64,000 bases of DNA from an uncultured Acidobacteriota bacterium. Its GTDB lineage: Bacteria; Acidobacteriota; Thermoanaerobaculia; Multivoradales; JAHEKO01. The position numbers and the translations under genes were made by a program. Below, in pieces: positions 35,998-44,309 of the stretch. The notes below the pieces were generated by a model. That model saw nothing but the letters and a program-made list of their open reading frames with translations, was not told where the DNA came from and made no database searches. Location: positions 256,001 through 320,000 of the forward strand of contig CAVQNG010000014.1 in the NCBI GenBank assembly GCA_963713825.1. Direction: 5' to 3'. Every line of letters starts with the position of its first letter. The stretch's first letter is position 1.

Positions 35998-36675
35998 ATG
36001 GATGTCAACGATTTCGCGATCGCCACAGTAGCGCCTCGCCTGCCGAGAATTGGCGACGCGGCTCCCCAGTTCGAGGCTCCAACGACCCATGGCACCTTGC
36101 GGCTGGAGGATTTCAAAGGCAGTTGGCTGGTGCTGTTTTCCCACCCGGCGGATTTCACTCCGGTCTGTACGACCGAGTTCATCGGATTTGCCAAGGCCCA
36201 AGGGGCTTTGCGGCAGCTCAACACGGAGTTGCTGGGCCTTTCTATCGATAGCGTCTACTCCCACATCTCGTGGGTGCGCAATGTCGAAGAGAAGATGGGG
36301 ATCAAGGTCGAGTTCCCGGTCATCGCTGATCTGAGCAAGGAAGTGGCAACTCTTTACGGCATGATCATGCCTGGAGAGAGCAAGACCGAGACCTCACGCT
36401 GTGTCTTCGTCATCGATCCCGAGCAGATCTTGCGGGCCATGATCTATTACCCACTGACCACCGGCAGGAATATCGACGAAATCATTCGTCTCATCAAGGC
36501 CCTGCAGACCGCTGACGAGTATGGCGTCGCGACGCCAGCCAACTGGCAGCCTGGGGACAGAGTGATCATTCCGCCACCACAAACCCAGGAGGCGGCTGAA
36601 GAGAGAGTGCAGACAGAGGGGGTGGAGTGCAAGGACTGGTACTTTTGCACGAAGGAACTGCCGGAGGCCGGGTAG
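35998..36675 (+). CDS. Peroxiredoxin, Prx6 subfamily (archaeal-like, with C-terminal Cys pair)
   Basis: FSHPADFTPVCTTE; YYPLTTGRN; TPANW; C-terminal CKDWYFC; AAGGAG RBS. Confidence 0.92.
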   Translation: MDVNDFAIATVAPRLPRIGDAAPQFEAPTTHGTLRLEDFKGSWLVLFSHPADFTPVCTTEFIGFAKAQGALRQLNTELLGLSIDSVYSHISWVRNVEEKMGIKVEFPVIADLSKEVATLYGMIMPGESKTETSRCVFVIDPEQILRAMIYYPLTTGRNIDEIIRLIKALQTADEYGVATPANWQPGDRVIIPPPQTQEAAEERVQTEGVECKDWYFCTKELPEAG

Positions 36676-36905
36676 TGGCCTGTGTCAATTCAGACGGGAG
36701 TCTCTCGAGCTCGGGGCTCGAGCTCCTGAAGCTGGCGACCGAGCCCGTGTCGCCAGATACGATCTCCAGGGAGTTGGGAATTCCTCTGTTCAAGGTGCGA
36801 GCCAGTCTGAGGGAAATGCTGGCAGCAGGTCTGGTCGTTGAGAAGCCAGCCGGTTACCAGACTACTGAGGACGGTCTTAACAAGGTCGGTACTGTGTTGG
36901 CCTGA
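36675..36905 (+). CDS. Small winged-HTH protein with N-terminal Cys
   Basis: GTG overlaps the prx TAG; MACVNSDG...SPDTISRELGIPLFKVRASLREMLAAGLV...YQTTEDG wHTH pattern. Confidence 0.75.
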   Translation: MACVNSDGSLSSSGLELLKLATEPVSPDTISRELGIPLFKVRASLREMLAAGLVVEKPAGYQTTEDGLNKVGTVLA

Positions 36906-36961
36906 TAATAGAACTGCGTTCGACACGGATCGAAGGACGACAGGAGAGACTCTTCCATCAG

Positions 36962-38074
36962 TCAGGGCAAGAAGGCCTTCTTGTTGGCCATCTTGCGCGG
37001 CAGGTACTCGTCGATCACGAAGTTGAGACCGTGTTTGGCGAGAGCCTGCTGCTCGACGCGAACGCCCATGCGGATCTGCTTCTGGAGCGCCTCCTGCCAG
37101 AGGCGGTGATGCTGGATGAAGGGATCATTCTTCAGCGCATCTTTGGCTCGTTTGACATCGACGTCCTTCAATGGATGCGTGGGCAGGTCGTATTCCTCGA
37201 TGTCGTCAGGTGTGACACCCAGGAACCGTGCCTGGGGGACGCAGAAGAACTCGTTCAGGTGAGCGGCATTGCCCGAGCCCGCTTTGAGAGTTCGGTAGAT
37301 GTTGCTGTAACCGTAGGGATCTCCGTCGACAAAGACATACACGGGTAGGTGGTGATCGTCGGCGAGACGTCGAATGAACCTCCTGCAAGCTCTCGTCGGT
37401 ACTCCCCCAAGGGAGATGAGGATGCAGTTCGCCGAGCGCCAGTAGGCGTGCTTGACCAGCCGCTGGAACATGCCAGCCGTCTCGATGGCCAGGATGAACT
37501 CCGCGCTGGTCTCGAATTTGAGCTGTTCGACCGAAATGGGGATGGAGTAGGCGCCACTTCCGAAGCGCGTGCAGTCGATGCGGAGACTCTCACCGGTCTC
37601 CCGATCGTGGTCGATGACGACGAGCTGGCCAGCGACATCGCCTCCCTTTTCCTCCGGGATGAAGCCGAGTTGTTCGCGATTGACGCCGAAGAGTGCTTCG
37701 ACATCGTCGATGACCGTGTCACTCTCCGGTTGTTCGTTGAATCGGGCATCGTCCCAGTTCTTGCTGACGTAGTAGGCCTCTCTCTTGGTGGCGATATCGT
37801 CGGTTTCGACCAGCTCCTTGCTGAAGGCCATCATGCGAAGAGTCTGCGCAAAGGTCTTGACTGTGCCGACAGTGAGCGTGCGTTCCTTCTTGCGGCCTTT
37901 GATCTCGAAATGCCCTTTCTTGGGCCGGTAGATGACGTTGGACAAGCTGCGCACCGGAAACTTCATGGACGGGGTCTTGCGTTGCAGGATCTTGGTGCGG
38001 ATGCCGCTAGCTTCGGCGCGGATTCGTTTGGCCACCGATGAGGCGGCCGGCTTGGAAGACGTCTTGGAAGGCAT
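36962..38074 (-). CDS. top6A: DNA topoisomerase VI subunit A (Spo11 family)
   Basis: Catalytic Tyr motif TKREAYY; QPESD; TOPRIM IETAGMF, GGVP, DGDPYG; EQQAL. Confidence 0.93.
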   Translation of the reverse strand: MPSKTSSKPAASSVAKRIRAEASGIRTKILQRKTPSMKFPVRSLSNVIYRPKKGHFEIKGRKKERTLTVGTVKTFAQTLRMMAFSKELVETDDIATKREAYYVSKNWDDARFNEQPESDTVIDDVEALFGVNREQLGFIPEEKGGDVAGQLVVIDHDRETGESLRIDCTRFGSGAYSIPISVEQLKFETSAEFILAIETAGMFQRLVKHAYWRSANCILISLGGVPTRACRRFIRRLADDHHLPVYVFVDGDPYGYSNIYRTLKAGSGNAAHLNEFFCVPQARFLGVTPDDIEEYDLPTHPLKDVDVKRAKDALKNDPFIQHHRLWQEALQKQIRMGVRVEQQALAKHGLNFVIDEYLPRKMANKKAFLP

Positions 38075-38136
38075 CAAAGGCTCCTTGGGTAGAGCTCGAT
38101 CATCATGACGAGACTTAGGTGTTTCAATCCGGGGAT

Positions 38137-39723
38137 CTACATCTTTCGGCTGCGGGCCAGGGTGGCGGTGAGCGTGTCGACGATCTCGGCTTCCTGCTTC
38201 TTGCTCAACCCCAGAATGTCCTGCAGAGCGATGCCGATGTGAGGGATGTACTGTTCGATGTAGGCCCTCTTGCGGTCCGCATCCCGGCGGCGTTGCGCAC
38301 GTTTTACATGCTGGGAGAGTTTTCGCCCGAGCTCCTGCAAGGCGAGCTTCATCTCGCGGATGATCTCGTCGTAGCCGGCGACGGCTTCTTTGCTTTCACT
38401 GGTGAAGGGGACCCATACGCTGGCAACATGGGCCATGAGGATCATCGGTCCACTGGGTAGGGCACCTCTGCTCTGTTGGAGACCGTAGGCCTTCCAATTG
38501 GTGGATAGGACGCTCTTGAACAGAGCACACCCACCCTGCTGGTAGAGCAGGGGGACCCGATTTGCGAATCGATAGAGGGAGATGAGATTGTCTGCAGGCT
38601 GCTCTCCACCATAGGCCAGTGCGACTTCGACCTGAAAGGGATTGCCTCTGTAGACGGCAGGCGAGCGGCTGACGGCGGCATAGAAATCGGCCTCGATCTG
38701 CTCTTTCAGACTGGCCAGCAATCGGTCTTCGCCGATCGGCGAAAGGCAGTTGGTTGGCGGTGCGGGAATTCGCACTTGGCGAATCGAGGCGACAAGTTTC
38801 TCAGCGCCCTCAGCGGTGATCCGTTTCGGGGAGCTCTTCGGCTGTAGCTCGGCGCCGTCCACGATCCGCTGTGCGAGGGTCGGACCGATGCGACTGAATT
38901 CGGTTTGGAGGAAGGTGTTCAATCGTCGTGCCTGAGTCTCTTTCAGCATGCGAAGAAGTAGACCGACCTCGACTCCATAGGGGTGGGGCTGAATTTCCAG
39001 AGCCTCGGTTGGCAGGTGCACCGAGGCGCGCCGGAAGACGAGAACATCCTCTTCGCCGGGCCCCTGAAAGTGAATCTCGACGTGAGGGTTGGCCAGTGCT
39101 GTCTGGCGAAGATAGGTCTCGACTCCGTGCCTACCCTTCTTGTAGGTGCCTTCGAGCTCGATCGTGACCCGAGTGCCGTGCGCAGTGTCCCACTCGACCT
39201 CGAGGTCCTTTTTGATGACCGGCTGGTTGCGCAGGGTGTCGATGACCAACTCGTAGCGATGAGCGGGCTTTCTCCGACTTGTTCGACTCTCGATGACGAT
39301 GGGCTTGCCGGTCGTCAGCTGGCCGTACATGCCGGCGGCGCTGATGCCGATTCCCTGTTGGCCGCGACTCTGTCGAAGGCGATGGAACTTCGAGCCGTAC
39401 AGCAACTTGCCAAAGATCTTCGGGATCTGAGCTCTGACGATTCCCGGTCCGTTGTCTCTCACCTCGACGCGAAAACGACTCTCGGCGACCGGATGAATCG
39501 CGATTTCCAGATTGGGCAGGATCCCAGCCTCTTCGCAGGCGTCCAGGGAGTTGTCGACCGCTTCCTTGATGGTGGTGAGGAGAGCCTTGGTCGGGGAATC
39601 GAACCCCAGGAGGTGTCGGTTCTTGGTAAAGAACTCGCTGACCGAAATCTCCCGTTGCCGTGCCGCCATGCTCTTGGCGGTGGCGCGGCGTGGAGGCGCA
39701 GGGGGAGCAGTCTTCTTCTTCAA
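38137..39723 (-). CDS. top6B: DNA topoisomerase VI subunit B
   Basis: EISVSEFF.KNRHLLGF; GHKL motifs KEAVDNSLDA, DNGPG, YGSKF, QSRGQQGIG; H2TH; RFANRVPL; VPFTSESKE. Confidence 0.95.
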   Translation of the reverse strand: MKKKTAPPAPPRRATAKSMAARQREISVSEFFTKNRHLLGFDSPTKALLTTIKEAVDNSLDACEEAGILPNLEIAIHPVAESRFRVEVRDNGPGIVRAQIPKIFGKLLYGSKFHRLRQSRGQQGIGISAAGMYGQLTTGKPIVIESRTSRRKPAHRYELVIDTLRNQPVIKKDLEVEWDTAHGTRVTIELEGTYKKGRHGVETYLRQTALANPHVEIHFQGPGEEDVLVFRRASVHLPTEALEIQPHPYGVEVGLLLRMLKETQARRLNTFLQTEFSRIGPTLAQRIVDGAELQPKSSPKRITAEGAEKLVASIRQVRIPAPPTNCLSPIGEDRLLASLKEQIEADFYAAVSRSPAVYRGNPFQVEVALAYGGEQPADNLISLYRFANRVPLLYQQGGCALFKSVLSTNWKAYGLQQSRGALPSGPMILMAHVASVWVPFTSESKEAVAGYDEIIREMKLALQELGRKLSQHVKRAQRRRDADRKRAYIEQYIPHIGIALQDILGLSKKQEAEIVDTLTATLARSRKM

Positions 39724-39833
39724 TGGATCACTGCCTTTCTCTCGGGCTGTGGCCTATCGCCGGACGGGCTCGGTCCTGCGACAGCAGACCAGTCCCTGGC
39801 CCGTCGTCGTCGCTGAGGTCTTGGGGAAGGCTG

Positions 39834-40754
39834 TCAACCGTGAAAAACCCTACGCCGATGCCAATCCAGAAAGGCCGGTCGAGGTCGATGCTCGAGCGTT
39901 TCTGGAGTCGTGATGGAAGCTCCGTCGAGGGTGAGGTAGACATCGGAACCGGCATAGTCGCGACTCAGAAGGCGACTCGCCCGGATCTGGTAGTCATCAG
40001 TGAGCGTCAGATACCCACGGTCGAAGAGTCGGCGCAAATCGGACCTCAGAAGCAGGCCATTGTCGACGCGATGGAGCCCACCCTGCGCTGGAGGGCGGAT
40101 ATGTGCGACTTCGAGAGCGGGCAGAGTCGGGTCTCCGGTCATGGCGCAACGCCGCTCATAGGCGTCTGTGACCAGGATCCGAAAGGCTCCAGGACCCAAT
40201 CTGGGAGGGGCCAGCGGGGGTTCACCGAACATCTCTGCCTGGGGCTCGAGTATTCGCCCGATATGCAGGGCGGACATGCGGCTTCGAACGTCTTCCCACA
40301 GAGACTTCCCGGCAGGTTTCGCAGTGTCGTATACCTTGCCCTGCACGATGCTCTTGGAGAAATCCTTCGGCGGCTCCAGCCAATCGGCCTCGTCGAAGTA
40401 GAACGGCCTCTCGAGGACGATCGAGCCGACGTCGTAGTCCTCGCCCCGCTTCGAGGGTTCCCGTCGATATCTTTGGATGCGCCTCTTGAGGGCCTCCGGA
40501 GTGACGGCACCGTTGCCCTCACCGAATACCTCCCAGGCGAGGCTCGCAGGCAGCAAGGATGAATGGGCGAAGAATCCTCCGCCGACAATGAAGGGGCGGG
40601 GACTGTGCAGCTTGAACAGGAATGGCTCTCCAGGTGTCAGTGCCTGGAATCGTCTCCGACCTCCCGGTTGCAGAAAGTTGATCTCGTCCAGGTCTGGACG
40701 GGTTCGCAGGAACTGAAACAGTCGGTCGTCGGTGACCGCGACGTAAATCTTCAT
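39834..40754 (-). CDS. COG3440-like HNH endonuclease (putative restriction endonuclease) with degenerate motifs
   Basis: RLGPGAFRILVTDAYERRCAMTG, EVAHIRP, NGLLLRSDLRRLFDRG, FLDWH; N-terminal LFKLH...IVGGGFF domain. Confidence 0.85.
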   Translation of the reverse strand: MKIYVAVTDDRLFQFLRTRPDLDEINFLQPGGRRRFQALTPGEPFLFKLHSPRPFIVGGGFFAHSSLLPASLAWEVFGEGNGAVTPEALKRRIQRYRREPSKRGEDYDVGSIVLERPFYFDEADWLEPPKDFSKSIVQGKVYDTAKPAGKSLWEDVRSRMSALHIGRILEPQAEMFGEPPLAPPRLGPGAFRILVTDAYERRCAMTGDPTLPALEVAHIRPPAQGGLHRVDNGLLLRSDLRRLFDRGYLTLTDDYQIRASRLLSRDYAGSDVYLTLDGASITTPETLEHRPRPAFLDWHRRRVFHG

Positions 40755-40908
40755 CTCTCGGCTCGCTTCGACTCCTGCCAAATGTACCGCTTTCCGCGAG
40801 CAAGGTCGATACCTGCAGCGGTACTGAGCGGGTAGTCCCAGTCGTTTCTCGAGCTCGATATCCCATGCAGAGTTTCAGGGATCGGGTCCGACGATCGAGC
40901 GAGTTGCT

Positions 40909-42753
40909 TCAGTTGGGGATCGACAGCCGCTGCCCGGGGAAGATCGTGCTGCGCTTGGAGAGTCCATTGACACTCATCAGGCTGCTCAGGGAGACACCCT
41001 GCCTCTGCGCAATGCGACCGAGGGTGTCCCCTCTTTGGACGACATAAGTGCCGCCGCTCGTCGTCGGTGCCGCCGAGGCGCTGCGTATTCTGAGTGACTG
41101 CCCTGGCCTGAGCATGGTGCTGGACAGGTTGTTGTCGCGTTTGAGGCGGTCAATCGTCGTGCCGTAGCGACTGGCGAGGAGCCAGAGACTGTCGCCACCT
41201 CGAACGGTGTACTGAATCTCCTGGCCTGGAGGAATGGGATTCGACGCGTAGGTTGCCCTGGGACGGCCCTCAGGCACCTGCAATTGCTGTCCCGTCCCGA
41301 TCCTATTGGCGCTGCGTAGATTGTTCATGTCCATCAGCGTCCGCACGCTGGTGCCGTACCGAGAAGCGATTCCGGAGAGTGTCTCGCCTCTGCGTACTCG
41401 ATGGACCGTGTAGGAGGTCGAGGGTGCGTCCCATTCGGGCACCTGGTCCAAGCTGGCCAGCAGGTACTCTGCTTGCCCCGTGGGAACCTTGACTTCATAG
41501 GGATCGGTCGGAGTGGCCTGACGCCGTAGCTCCGGGTTCAGTGCCGCGAGAGTTCCGCTTGACAACCCCAAGACCTGGTCGAGAGCGGTGAGCTCGGCAG
41601 AGCGCTCGATCTCGAGAGTTTCCCATTCGAGTGGAGCTGCCGGTTCCGGAAGGTCGAAGCCGTAGGCTGCAGGATCACTGACAATCTGCAGCACGGCAAG
41701 AAAGCGGGGCACATAGCGACGGGTCTCGCGGGGCAGCCGAGTGTAGATGTCCCAAAACTGATCGAAGTACCCTTGGCTTTGGCTGTTGATCCCGCGTAGC
41801 ACGTTACCCTCGCCGCAGTTGTACCCGGCCAGGGCGGTCAACCAGTCGCCAAAAAGGTTGTGAAGGTCGGTCAGGTACCCAATGGCCCCGATCGTGGCCT
41901 TCTCGGGATCCATCCGCTCGTCGATCCACCAGGAGCGTTCCAGGCCATATCGGTAGCCAGTCGAGGAGATGAACTGCCAGAGTCCCAATGCCCGAGCGCG
42001 GGAGAGGGCTCGCACCTTGAAGCCGCTCTCGACAAGCGGTAGCCAACTGATCTGCTCCGGCAGTCCGGCCTTCTTCAGCTCCTCGAGGATCATGGGTCGA
42101 TAGAGCCCGGATCGGATGTAGGACTCGAGGAAGAAGTCCCGTTCGGGGCCCTGAAAGCTCTTGATCTCACGCTCGACGTACTCGTTGAGAACCATCGGAA
42201 TCGATCGAGCGACATCGCCGACGGCCGTCTGTCGGGAGGCATAGATCTCGATCACCCGGCGAGAGATCAAATGGCGAAGATCTTCCTTCTCCTGTGCTAG
42301 CAGGGGATCGCCGTTCAGCGGCGCTGCGGCCATGAGCTCGTAGGCCCGGTCGAGGGCGGCGAAGGCATCGTCGAAGTTGCCCTGCTTCCAGAAGATATCC
42401 GCCGACTCGTAGGCCTCGAGCGAGTCCTGCAACAGCGCCACACTCTGGTCGTGGTCGGCTGCGATCGAAGAGGACCCATCGACGATCTCATCCGGGAAGT
42501 CGGAATCGCCGAGGATCTCTGACTCGATGGGCTCGCCGGGCTGCAGCGCGAAGGCATCGCCCTCCTCATCCTGTCGGTCTGCCGTGGAGTCCTCCGGTCC
42601 TGCCGCCTCTTCAGCGATTGTTTCCGGTGGCGACTGTCCCTCGGAGGGCGAGTAGAAGACCTGGACTGAGGAGGAGGGTGGGTTGCTCCGGCAACCCAGC
42701 ACTGGGAGAAGGAACACGACTCCGGTCAGGAGTAGGAGGATACGACGCATCAT
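40909..42753 (-). CDS. mltD: Membrane-bound lytic murein transglycosylase D-like lipoprotein (SLT + three C-terminal LysM)
   Basis: Lipobox VLGC; VESG, ALGLWQF, AGYNCGEG, ETRRYVPR; LysM repeats HRVRRGETL, YTVRGGDSL, YVVQRGDTL. Confidence 0.9.
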   Translation of the reverse strand: MMRRILLLLTGVVFLLPVLGCRSNPPSSSVQVFYSPSEGQSPPETIAEEAAGPEDSTADRQDEEGDAFALQPGEPIESEILGDSDFPDEIVDGSSSIAADHDQSVALLQDSLEAYESADIFWKQGNFDDAFAALDRAYELMAAAPLNGDPLLAQEKEDLRHLISRRVIEIYASRQTAVGDVARSIPMVLNEYVEREIKSFQGPERDFFLESYIRSGLYRPMILEELKKAGLPEQISWLPLVESGFKVRALSRARALGLWQFISSTGYRYGLERSWWIDERMDPEKATIGAIGYLTDLHNLFGDWLTALAGYNCGEGNVLRGINSQSQGYFDQFWDIYTRLPRETRRYVPRFLAVLQIVSDPAAYGFDLPEPAAPLEWETLEIERSAELTALDQVLGLSSGTLAALNPELRRQATPTDPYEVKVPTGQAEYLLASLDQVPEWDAPSTSYTVHRVRRGETLSGIASRYGTSVRTLMDMNNLRSANRIGTGQQLQVPEGRPRATYASNPIPPGQEIQYTVRGGDSLWLLASRYGTTIDRLKRDNNLSSTMLRPGQSLRIRSASAAPTTSGGTYVVQRGDTLGRIAQRQGVSLSSLMSVNGLSKRSTIFPGQRLSIPN

Positions 42754-42980
42754 GATCGGGCGGCGTAAGGATAGCTCAGTGTTGGTGGCGTGCGCTGTCA
42801 CTCTCGTCACAAGTTCTCACCGGTTCATCGGGGGTCGACCCGAGTTCAATGGGTGCCGGCTCGCCTATCTGCTACCCGGCGTTGACGCACGAGTATATGC
42901 GAGCCGATCGACAGGGTCGGGGTCGCCCTCAGAGCAGTGGATCTCGGCGGCGGGCCTCAGCGAGCCGGAATCGGAGTTCC

Positions 42981-44309
42981 CTAACGTACGCAGCCCCGCA
43001 GCCAGCGTCCATCGAGGGTGACATAGGCGGTGAGGTCGCGGCGAACGCCAGTCTCGGGATCGGGGCAGGGTTCTTGGTTGATCACCACCTTGAGATTGTG
43101 AGGTGGGTCGCCGGCCACCGAAGTGACGTAGGTTTCGCCATTTGCCGAACGCTTCGGAATGGCGTAGGGAAAACGGATGGAATCGCCCGCCGCTGGACTC
43201 GCGTAGACGATTCCCGTGGCCTCGATGTTCACGGTCCAGACTGGCGGTCCGCCTGCAATGGCGATCCGAGATGGGTCGGAGTCGGGAACGACAGATGGAG
43301 ACGGTTTCGGAGGTGTGGGCGCCGTGGGGGGTGGTTGACTAGCGCTGTCTGCGATCACAGCGCAGTCCGTGTTCTGGGCGTCGGCTTTCAGAAGCTCGAT
43401 GACGGTGACCTGCCTGGCGTAGTGAGCGCCAAAGCCCGACGCTGGAGCAGGCCCCATAGCCCCGCGGAAATGAATCAAGAGCGGCAGGTTGGGAGCCGAA
43501 ACCCCACTCCGATAGACCTTCCACAACTCCTGACCGCTGTCGTCTTCGATCCAGATGCTCGCTTCCTCGCCGCAAGGAGTGAAGGAGCGGGCCTCGATCC
43601 CGGAGCCAATGGTCAATGTGCCCATGATCGACTTCCCATTGACGGTCGAGGTACTGGACGGACTCGATGCGGAGATAGCTACTGGCCTCTCGGCAGGCAC
43701 GACAGCCGATGTCGCTGTGGTTGGCGGAGTCGGCTCGGTGGCGACGATCTGCTCCTCGGCAGGGACGGTAGCTGGCGTCGATTCGGACGCCGTTGTGGGG
43801 AGTGCTGCCGCAGCCACTGGTGGAGCCGGGGCGGTTTCAGGTTCGATCGCGGGCGTCTCGACGGGAGCAGCTGGCGGGGAGGCGAGTGGTTCCGAAGTTA
43901 CCTCCGGTACGGCAAGCTCTTCGACTTCGGTCGCTCTGCGGTCCGAGATCGCTGGCTCGGCGAAGGTCTCGAACTCTTCGAGGACCTGAACGACCTTGTA
44001 CCGGGTTCGTTGAGGCTCGCTTTCGCCCATCGCTGGATCCAATTCGACCAACAGAATGTAGGCGACACCTTCCCGGTAGTAGAAGTTGCTGATGCTACCT
44101 TCGAAGACACTCCAGTCGTCGTACTGCTCCGCCTTTGTCTGATAGCAGAGGCGGGCAGGGTCGCTGGGACAGTCCACCAGCTCGTGGCCGACCCAGAGCT
44201 CGAAGAGCCCGGGCTTTTGCGCCATGGCCTCAGAGCCGTAGCTGAGAGCTCCAACCGCGAAGAAAACAAGAATGCACCGCTTGAAAAGAGAGATCATCGA
44301 GTTCAACAC
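42981..44309 (-). CDS. Exported modular protein: DUF4377-like domain, Pro/Ala linker, NlpE-C-like and COG3650-like domains
   Basis: AGGAGG RBS; signal peptide; VDC...CYQ...ISNFYYREG; FTPCG; C-terminal EPC...LRGC. Confidence 0.6.
   Translation of the reverse strand: MLNSMISLFKRCILVFFAVGALSYGSEAMAQKPGLFELWVGHELVDCPSDPARLCYQTKAEQYDDWSVFEGSISNFYYREGVAYILLVELDPAMGESEPQRTRYKVVQVLEEFETFAEPAISDRRATEVEELAVPEVTSEPLASPPAAPVETPAIEPETAPAPPVAAAALPTTASESTPATVPAEEQIVATEPTPPTTATSAVVPAERPVAISASSPSSTSTVNGKSIMGTLTIGSGIEARSFTPCGEEASIWIEDDSGQELWKVYRSGVSAPNLPLLIHFRGAMGPAPASGFGAHYARQVTVIELLKADAQNTDCAVIADSASQPPPTAPTPPKPSPSVVPDSDPSRIAIAGGPPVWTVNIEATGIVYASPAAGDSIRFPYAIPKRSANGETYVTSVAGDPPHNLKVVINQEPCPDPETGVRRDLTAYVTLDGRWLRGCVR

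Follow-up and report, generated by a model that had tools for sequence, protein, structure and literature searches.

A PUA–HNH protein with a substituted catalytic residue encoded upstream of topoisomerase VI genes in an uncultured acidobacterium

In an uncultured Acidobacteriota bacterium (assembly GCA_963713825.1, contig CAVQNG010000014.1, positions 256,001 to 320,000 of the forward strand), a gene for a protein with an HNH nuclease domain is located directly upstream of top6B and top6A, the genes of a bacterial topoisomerase VI. This arrangement raises the question of whether the HNH-type protein still cuts DNA, and whether it works together with the product of its neighbors. The whole stretch of 64,000 nt that was analyzed is referred to below as the window, and its features are listed in Table 1. 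The initial annotation of the locus described an intact but disarmed nuclease and proposed two possible roles: an accessory or regulator of topoisomerase VI, or part of a topoisomerase VI-linked defense or repair module. On balance, we favor another reading, in which the gene encodes a nuclease-dead, domesticated DNA-binding protein derived from a restriction enzyme, and its position beside top6BA reflects inherited gene order and not an obligate partnership.

Architecture and active site of the HNH-type protein

The AlphaFold2 model of the HNH-type protein, built with 52 aligned relatives, has a mean predicted local distance difference test score (pLDDT) of 87.9 and a predicted template modeling score (pTM) of 0.85, and the pLDDT falls below 50 only at residues 165-183. 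The top Foldseek matches of the model were VcaM4I (6yex, E 1.4e-9) and TagI (6ghs, E 1.3e-5), followed by ASCH domains. In structural alignments made with VIA-align, residues 1-159 matched ZmASCH (5y6b_D; Z 12.3, root mean square deviation (rmsd) 2.9, 132 aligned residues), the N-terminal domain matched an EVE domain (2eve, Z 8.5), and the HNH part matched TagI (6ghs; Z 12.2, rmsd 2.3, 108 aligned residues, 23% identity). Pfam family HNH_2 recognizes the protein with 38.8 bits (gathering cut-off 21, E 8.5e-10) and matches 52/52 aligned relatives, while none of 52 members has a Pfam match to its N-terminal domain at E ≤ 1, and residues 1-165 gave unnamed clusters only in the ESM Atlas. As modeled, the HNH-type protein combines an N-terminal, ASCH/EVE-like PUA-superfamily domain with a C-terminal HNH_2 domain. 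Type IV modification-dependent restriction enzymes, e.g., VcaM4I and TagI, are built in this way (PMC7897488, PMC6765204), and both the model and the fold matches show such a fusion of a PUA-superfamily sensor with a nuclease domain. PADLOC returned generic HNH matches only for the HNH-type protein.

VcaM4I is the sole PDB sequence match to the window protein (E 3.7e-5 with the single sequence, 1.4e-11 with a profile). Both are two-domain proteins of ~300 amino acids (aa), with a PUA-superfamily sensor and an HNH_2-type nuclease, and their active-site columns align one to one. They differ in the relative orientation of the domains (rmsd 16.9 over 227 residues) and in the sensor, which in VcaM4I is an EVE domain with a pocket comprising Pro24, Trp82 and Tyr130 (PMC7897488), whereas the N-terminal domain of the window protein is nearer to ASCH (Z 12.3) than to EVE (Z 8.5) and lacks detectable sequence similarity. 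TagI resembles the window protein in overall architecture, and the HNH domains of the two superpose (Z 12.2); however, its depositors call TagI an active restriction enzyme, while the window protein has no ligand His.

The AHI motif and the Asn of the HNH domain had been recorded as kept in the initial annotation, and the position of the last metal-ligand His as occupied by Arg. Both observations hold: His218 (of AHI), His228, Asn232, Asp239 and Asp245 are all retained, and in the motif D N G L L L R S D L R R L F D R residue 241 is Arg, encoded by CGC. An arginine side chain is unable to ligate a divalent cation. In a profile alignment, His224, Asn241 and Asp254 of VcaM4I correspond to His218, Asn232 and Asp245 of the window protein, and Asp250 falls in column 241. 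His224 (the water activator), Asn241 (structural) and Asp250 are the residues that give the HNH motif its name in VcaM4I, where Asp250 takes the metal-ligand role of the last His and Asp254 is likely a second ligand; the exchanges H224A, D250A and D254A drastically impaired both cleavage in vitro and restriction in vivo (PMC7897488). Judged by this alignment to a solved and mutated relative, Arg241 is at a catalytic position, at which VcaM4I has its working metal ligand. Of the residues expected of an HNH nuclease, the window protein has the first His and the structural Asn, and lacks a last motif residue able to ligate metal (His, or Asp/Asn).

To place these substitutions in the family, the corresponding columns were compared in several samples. 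Among the 132 nearest family members, a sample skewed towards kin of the window protein, column 241 holds His in 72, Arg in 38, Lys in 11, Gly in 6 and Ala in 5; column 218 holds His in 110, Phe in 15, Tyr in 4, Thr in 2 and Leu in 1; column 12 holds Trp in 87, Leu in 42, Gln in 2 and Met in 1; and column 28 holds Trp in 112 and Leu in 20. Asn232 and Asp239 are invariant (132/132). The Leu12/Leu28/His218/Arg241 combination of the window protein is shared by 17 of these 132 sequences, and occurs in independent assemblies and metagenome contigs as well. Among the 150 best representatives at 50% identity, column 241 holds His in 123, another residue in 26 (Arg in 9, Ala in 5, others in 12) and a gap in one, and column 218 holds His in 132. 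The frequency of His in column 241 of both samples agrees with the SDLHxLFD pattern that the initial annotation gave for the family. The alignment also supports the replacement of two conserved Trp residues by Leu, which had been proposed together with this pattern, since Trp12 is 99% and Trp28 100% conserved among the 141 relatives that keep His241. In canonical members these two residues may contribute to a sensor pocket for a flipped modified base.

Three further samples were analyzed: 80 loci from species-representative genomes, 80 metagenome loci and 401 genomes of the phylum (G006 and G189, flagged as unpublished, enter only the tallies of the 401 genomes). Genomes are denoted by G and loci by L labels; G000 is the genome of the window, and G001, G002 and G020 correspond to L022, L018 and L023, respectively. 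Among the 80 species-representative loci, only the closest relatives of the window protein show the deviant states; these relatives come from Acidobacteriota/Thermoanaerobaculia-type genomes and one Candidatus Multivoraceae genome, and more distant members are all Trp-Trp-His-His. Among the best 30 loci of the 401-genome sample, the other members are likewise canonical (27/27). The His-to-Arg change recurs among near relatives (38/132) but not in these 27 loci of the phylum sample.

The canonical members of the family are 40-58% identical to the window protein over the full length, are equally long and have the same conserved core columns. They carry Trp12, Trp28, His218, His228, His241 and Asp245 (27/27 of the other phylum-sample loci), and are annotated as "putative restriction endonuclease" or "HNH endonuclease", with HNH_2 covering the C-terminal part only.

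A degenerate clade under purifying selection

In an IQ-TREE phylogeny of 97 sequences the main set of His241-less members is monophyletic (52/52; Shimodaira–Hasegawa-like approximate likelihood ratio test (SH-aLRT) support 95), and a FastTree phylogeny of 204 non-identical sequences agrees. A Leu12 subclade (34/34, support 51) is nested in this clade, and within the Leu12 group there is a His218-less subclade (23/23, support 44), the sister of the window's genus. In the FastTree phylogeny, the loss of His241 needs three changes and that of His218 two, and the isolated sequences P0053 and P0100 represent separate His241 losses. In the Thermoanaerobaculia-type lineage, His241 is replaced by Arg, Lys, Gly or Ala, and in one degenerate subclade a His follows directly (R-H). 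His218 is lost in 24 of the 63 degenerate members, with Phe, Tyr, Thr or Leu in the sister branch, and Asp245 is kept in just 71% of the degenerate clade. All clade members seen are full length.

The degeneration is not confined to the two catalytic His residues. Of the columns conserved at ≥94% in the 141 canonical members, seventeen show relaxation or change among the 63 degenerate ones, and 13 of these are in the HNH domain (R185, Q188, F191, T196, E208, A216, A217, H218, H228, L236, H241, D245 and N269/G270). The relaxed columns of the N-terminal domain are mainly W12, W28 and C111, and its other conserved columns are largely unchanged. The two domains also swap their relative rates: in three bins of divergence, the ratio of HNH to N-terminal protein distance is 2.19, 1.93 and 1.15 for degenerate pairs, compared to 0.81, 0.77 and 0.83 for canonical pairs at matched divergence, i.e., in canonical members the HNH domain is the slower-evolving one. 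A higher net charge of the clade, with extra conserved Arg and Lys residues (+2.3 vs. -0.75), was not used, being confounded by phylogeny and G+C content.

The ratio of nonsynonymous to synonymous substitution rates (dN/dS; Nei-Gojobori, window vs. congeners) is 0.055-0.10 for the HNH-type gene. For the same genome pairs, the values are 0.044-0.066 for top6B, 0.054-0.065 for top6A and 0.095 for the upstream LysM gene. Both domains are constrained, the N-terminal one at 0.045-0.095 and the HNH domain at 0.069-0.103. In three lineages that lack top6BA, dN/dS versus the window is 0.102 (L108), 0.055 (L018) and 0.079 (L022), and more distant clade members have values of 0.17-0.24. The full length of the gene, its degenerate ligand column and its low dN/dS bear out the initial description of an intact yet disarmed gene. 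Canonical-family copies with internal stops are found elsewhere in the phylum at G403:C253:455-1360 (two stops), G054:C36:1331758-1332660 (one) and G229:C83:75546-76256 (one); these are truly decaying, in contrast to the window gene.

These patterns are consistent with the following course of events. The gene would derive from a type IV restriction endonuclease family, its product consisting of an ASCH/EVE-like PUA domain, a flexible linker and an HNH domain. In one Thermoanaerobaculia-type lineage Arg, Lys, Gly or Ala took the place of the metal-ligand His of the HNH domain, after which constraint was lost at further active-site columns. The branch that is sister to the window's genus also lost the general-base His, and two Trp residues of the sensor domain changed to Leu. 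The most likely outcome is that DNA cutting was lost while a stand-alone nucleic-acid-binding "reader" was retained. Constraint is now stronger on the PUA-like domain of this protein, with the HNH fold probably serving as a scaffold for DNA binding or dimerization. The site directly upstream of top6B-top6A would represent an inherited local order, possibly with shared transcription.

Gene order around topoisomerase VI and competing explanations

Within the genus, 11 loci are readable downstream of the HNH-type gene. In eight of them the gene adjoins top6B (G000, G003, G004, G005, L021, L107, L109 and L110), and in three it does not (G001, G002 and L108); L111 was not counted, as it ends inside the HNH-type gene. 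In L108, L018 and L022 the order is LysM - HNH-type gene - peroxiredoxin, with top6BA absent, and their blastn alignment to the window ends at or near the HNH-type stop codon and resumes near 36905/36890. L108 shows 90% DNA identity to the window and carries a 43-nt relic of top6B (window 39597-39555, 97.7% identity), which marks a deletion. G001 (91% complete) and G002 (84% complete) showed no Top6A or Top6B in any part of the assembly. In a DNA tree of the LysM-HNH region, L108 is the sister of the window (100/100), and L018 and L022 are placed in the other half of the genus, with top6-bearing loci (99/99); at least two losses of top6BA are therefore required.

The top6B-top6A pair is thus a presence/absence polymorphism within a single genus, and topoisomerase VI seems dispensable in these bacteria. 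On either side of the top6BA segment, a search for repeats, direct or inverted, gave only short, chance-like matches. The right-hand limit of the indel, near 36905, is the end of a convergent open reading frame (ORF; 36627-36905) that is conserved in relatives without top6BA. One contig of depth 2 from DNA run X1 connects 39891 to 37077 through 5 other letters and is too weak to interpret; it may be an assembly chimera, or come from another variant whose deletion extends into the 3' end of the HNH-type gene.

Outside the genus, the adjacency is kept in G020, where a PilZ/Cds6_C gene and not LysM is located upstream. In G011, 14 kb separate the HNH-type gene from a Top6A fragment; in G009 the gene and top6 are on different contigs, and in G031 they are 1.3 Mb apart. 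Top6B without a full-length HNH-type relative is found in six genomes of the same bacterial family (G008, G013, G017, G021, G023 and G024; 74-99% complete). Around both loci, the same few genes are found in varying order, namely those for an alpha/beta hydrolase, a PAS-GGDEF-EAL protein, a PilZ/Cds6_C protein and methionine sulfoxide reductase: the order is hydrolase, HNH-type gene and convergent GGDEF-EAL gene in L025 and L098; GGDEF-EAL, MFS, alpha/beta hydrolase and top6B in G021; and methionine sulfoxide reductase and top6B in G013. The simplest reading is an old common neighborhood from which either partner has since been lost or moved. In the third subclade (L027 and L099), the HNH-type gene is flanked by a cytidylate kinase/NUDIX pair on one side and a homocysteine S-methyltransferase gene on the other, and in L036 a family member lies between an amidase and a luciferase-like gene. 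The neighborhoods inspected held no partner gene common to the whole degenerate clade.

On a larger scale, a Top6 gene is present in the flank of 4 of the 80 genome loci (L019, L020, L021 and L023) and 3 of the 80 metagenome loci (L107, L109 and L110), many contigs of the latter being too short to tell, and all of these loci come from close relatives of the window. In the 401-genome sample, Top6B occurs in 67 genomes, the HNH-type family in 47, and both in 19. The two are adjacent in only 2 of these 19 genomes (G000 and G004), and in the other 17 they are on different contigs or >250 kb apart; 10 co-occurring copies from those 17 were inspected, and all are canonical.

The presence of the gene therefore does not track topoisomerase VI, as would be expected of an accessory protein (G001, G002, L108, the six family genomes, and adjacency in 2/19). 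The synteny noted initially is real in 8 of the 11 genus loci and in G020, and it is lost in three lineages and confined to these two genera. The proposed accessory or regulator role fares poorly, given that the gene is kept in three lineages without top6BA and that adjacency is limited to two genera; the same is true of the proposed defense or repair module, in view of the six family genomes with Top6B alone and the two adjacent cases in 19.

Several observations weigh against the reading that the protein is nuclease-dead and probably independent of topoisomerase VI. Since His218, His228, Asp239 and Asp245 are kept in the window's genus, residual or altered catalysis is possible. Most pairs within the genus have dS values close to saturation (1.0-2.0), the exception being the L108 pair (dS 0.27, dN/dS 0.10), and the pairs used to compare domain rates are non-independent. 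The HNH-type family and Top6B co-occur in 19 genomes versus 7.9 expected (naive Fisher p 3e-5), although this is not a valid test because kin are non-independent. The two genes are adjacent in two genera, although the gene upstream of them is LysM in the window and PilZ/Cds6_C in L023. In L019 (6767-6770) and L110 (6918-6921), the sole in-frame start ahead of the conserved Top6B N-terminus is a TTG that overlaps the HNH-type stop codon (4 nt), which, if used as predicted, would mean translational coupling in that species. Finally, a 254-nt RNA-library contig matches 39651-39904 with no mismatch and bridges the 110-nt gap downstream of the HNH-type gene.

Two more RNA-library contigs, of 251 nt each, cover 39767-40016 and 40079-40329. 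The two metatranscriptome runs (X19 and X20) were kept as contigs that cover 10 and 4 of 30 bins, and DNA contamination is possible, so that the contigs give a weak hint of expression and of read-through across the gap, a single transcript not being proven. A scan of 36600-43000 identified one promoter-like and five terminator-like sites, no more than in shuffled sequences, and none of either kind in the 110-nt or the 59-nt gap. Co-transcription of the HNH-type gene with topoisomerase VI is plausible in this genus, and the operon-like order together with the one RNA contig bridging the gap may reflect a facultative link. The predicted complex of the HNH-type protein with Top6B scored 0.00 against a mark of 0.32, which speaks neither for nor against an interaction.

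The first alternative is a still-active type IV nuclease, in which Asp239, Asp245 and His228 hold the metal or Arg241 replaces its charge. We consider this unlikely, if not strikingly so. It would account for the retention of His218, Asn232, Asp239 and Asp245, for the purifying selection on the HNH domain and for the neighboring His of the R-H subclade. It is opposed by the inability of Arg to ligate a divalent cation, the loss of the general-base His in the sister branch, the 71% retention of Asp245 in the clade, an HNH domain that evolves ~2 times faster than the N-terminal domain (the opposite of canonical members), and a stable housekeeping context that is not defense-island-like; PADLOC gave generic HNH matches only. 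The example of VcaM4I bears on both sides, as its Asp250 illustrates that the last HNH position tolerates substitutes, but the equivalent exchange D250A was drastically impairing (PMC7897488). The idea that host methylation would make an active enzyme lethal to its own cell was also considered; G000 has one C5-methyltransferase match, as do 9 of 14 control genomes, and the comparison is uninformative.

A second alternative, a disarmed accessory subunit or regulator that binds DNA together with Top6A/B, by analogy with RHL1 and BIN4 of plant topoisomerase VI, appears improbable. The co-oriented, operon-like layout with no terminator-like site in the 110-nt gap, the possible 4-nt overlap in L019 and L110, the RNA contig, the adjacency in a second genus and the excess of co-occurrence are what it would predict; moreover, RHL1 and BIN4 are absent from bacteria, for which PMC11302465 speculates about "alternative accessory proteins". 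The likeness to RHL1/BIN4 extends to the idea only, i.e., a DNA-binding protein encoded or acting with topoisomerase VI, and whereas these proteins are described as always accompanying eukaryotic topoisomerase VI (PMC11302465), the window gene does not track the enzyme. Three close lineages without top6BA keep the gene at dN/dS 0.055-0.10, G001 and G002 being devoid of any Top6A/Top6B; six family genomes have Top6B and no full-length HNH-type relative, with an alpha/beta hydrolase gene directly before top6B in G021; and the degenerate members L025/L098, L027/L099 and L036 are far from any top6 gene. The rarity of Top6 in the flanks (4/80 and 3/80 loci, 2/19 co-occurring genomes) likewise stands against such a role.

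A combined version, which we regard as very doubtful, holds that a domesticated, nuclease-dead reader of marked or unusual DNA became co-transcribed with topoisomerase VI in the ancestor of this Thermoanaerobaculia family. It would assist or restrain the enzyme at such DNA, in a facultative association from which either side can be lost. If this were true, the protein would be one of the speculated bacterial "alternative accessory proteins" (PMC11302465).

A decaying passenger gene (the simple alternative named in the initial annotation) or a sequencing or assembly error at Arg241 is hardly credible: although CGC is one base from the His codon CAC and broken family members exist (G403, G054 and G229), dN/dS is 0.055-0.10 over dS 0.27-1.9, far from 1 and equal to that of top6B/top6A, every clade member seen is full length, the same Arg is found in 17/132 nearest sequences as well as in independent assemblies and metagenome contigs, and no variant at the Arg241 codon is among the differences listed (all but 90 lower-ranked ones) for the two DNA runs covering the site, and both ideas are therefore rejected.

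Wider family and locus layout

The family of the HNH-type protein comprises 19,169 representatives at 50% identity (E ≤ 1e-3), of which 1,024 are found at E ≤ 1e-30. One or both catalytic His residues are lost in 28 of 137 near-full-length representatives, which requires at least 13 changes (FastTree, deep nodes uncertain). In this family, proteins kept at full length thus seem to have lost their catalytic residues repeatedly.

Fusions of PUA and HNH domains are commonly treated as restriction enzymes. The clade of the window protein is a sizeable PUA–HNH group without the metal ligand, and partly without the general base, that is constrained as tightly as an essential-type neighbor, is inherited vertically and resides in housekeeping contexts. 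The recurrent losses across the family suggest that non-cutting, restriction-derived "readers" are a regular evolutionary outcome, and make such proteins candidate binders of DNA marks in bacteria. The titles and the opening parts of abstracts that were searched contain no description of a natural nuclease-dead PUA–HNH clade or of an HNH partner of topoisomerase VI. For the biology of topoisomerase VI the result is mainly negative: the neighbor is not a required partner, and the enzyme is gained or lost between close relatives. PMC11302465 treats the accessory proteins of bacterial topoisomerase VI as an open question, for which the HNH-type gene is a poor candidate.

In 7 of the 80 genome loci (L052, L054, L055, L061, L063, L089 and L090), a canonical member is followed by another HNH_2 gene whose N-terminal part differs; in L052 (6919-7866, plus strand) this gene begins 4 bp past the first stop codon. 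Together, the two genes may form a restriction pair. No such partner is present in G000, the genome of the window (one family match).

In the window, the minus-strand order is LysM/SLT gene, HNH-type gene, top6B and top6A, all co-oriented (Table 1). The gaps of about 110 and 60 bp reported initially for the three latter genes are close to those measured. The longest ORF of the HNH-type gene (39834..40781) begins at TTG; the ATG start was chosen because the homologues, 303-320 aa long among the 120 matches listed, are mostly of 306 aa. The G+C content across the window is 58-63%, with no local shift.

Table 1. Coordinates of the HNH-type gene, its domains and key codons, and the surrounding features of the window.
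Feature	Coordinates	Strand	Details
HNH-type gene	39834..40754	minus	306 aa; ATG at 40754, TGA at 39836-39834; ORF list, homologue lengths
N-terminal PUA-superfamily (ASCH-like) domain	40275..40754	minus	residues 1-160; VIA-align to ASCH/EVE folds
Leu12 codon	40719-40721	minus	family Trp column
Leu28 codon	40671-40673	minus	family Trp column
C-terminal HNH (beta-beta-alpha-Me) domain	39837..40202	minus	residues 185-306; Pfam HNH_2, TagI fold, VcaM4I profile alignment
His218 codon	40101-40103	minus	His of AHI, retained
Arg241 codon CGC	40032..40034 (40034-40032)	minus	family metal-ligand His column; corresponds to Asp250 of VcaM4I
Gap between HNH-type gene and top6B	39724..39833	minus	110 nt
top6B	38137..39723	minus	528 aa, TTG start; Pfam, NCBIfam
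Gap between top6B and top6A	38078-38136		59 nt
top6A	36962..38077	minus	371 aa; three Pfam Top6A domains
top6B + top6A segment absent from L108	36906..39810		blastn; similar limits in L018 and L022
LysM/SLT gene	40909..42810	minus	3 LysM + SLT transglycosylase domains (Pfam); upstream neighbor conserved within the genus
Small ORF	36627-36905	plus	92 aa; without Pfam family; overlaps 3' end of peroxiredoxin gene
Peroxiredoxin and SpoIIE phosphatase genes	beyond top6A	plus	Pfam

The identity of the two topoisomerase genes is clear from their Pfam and NCBIfam matches, which cover the GHKL ATPase and transducer of Top6B and the winged-helix 5Y-CAP, all-beta and Toprim parts of Top6A. Top6B is matched by NF003218 with 680 bits (equivalog cut-off 274) and by Topo-VIb_trans (E 6.5e-58). 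Top6A is matched by TOP6A-Spo11_Toprim (E 2.4e-59), TP6A_N and Topo_VI_alpha; its equivalog scores are under the cut-offs, yet all three Pfam domains were found. Top6A also has weak PADLOC matches to JetD (E 1e-6), as expected from the shared Toprim/Top6A-like fold, with no sign of a defense system here.

The organization of the top6 genes varies among the loci, and in related genera the two genes do not adjoin each other. About 2.6 kb separate top6B from top6A in L023 (8541-11178), with a long ORF that has a weak BNR-like match, and ~3.9 kb in L100 (7534-11424), where a PilZ/Cds6_C gene and an antisense DNA-alkylation-repair gene intervene. In L101 and L104, top6A was not seen within several kb of top6B. 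Top6B is matched as two overlapping pieces in L020 (2821-4378; G005:C91), which represents a frameshift or an assembly error, and in G279 (C286) it carries one TAG.

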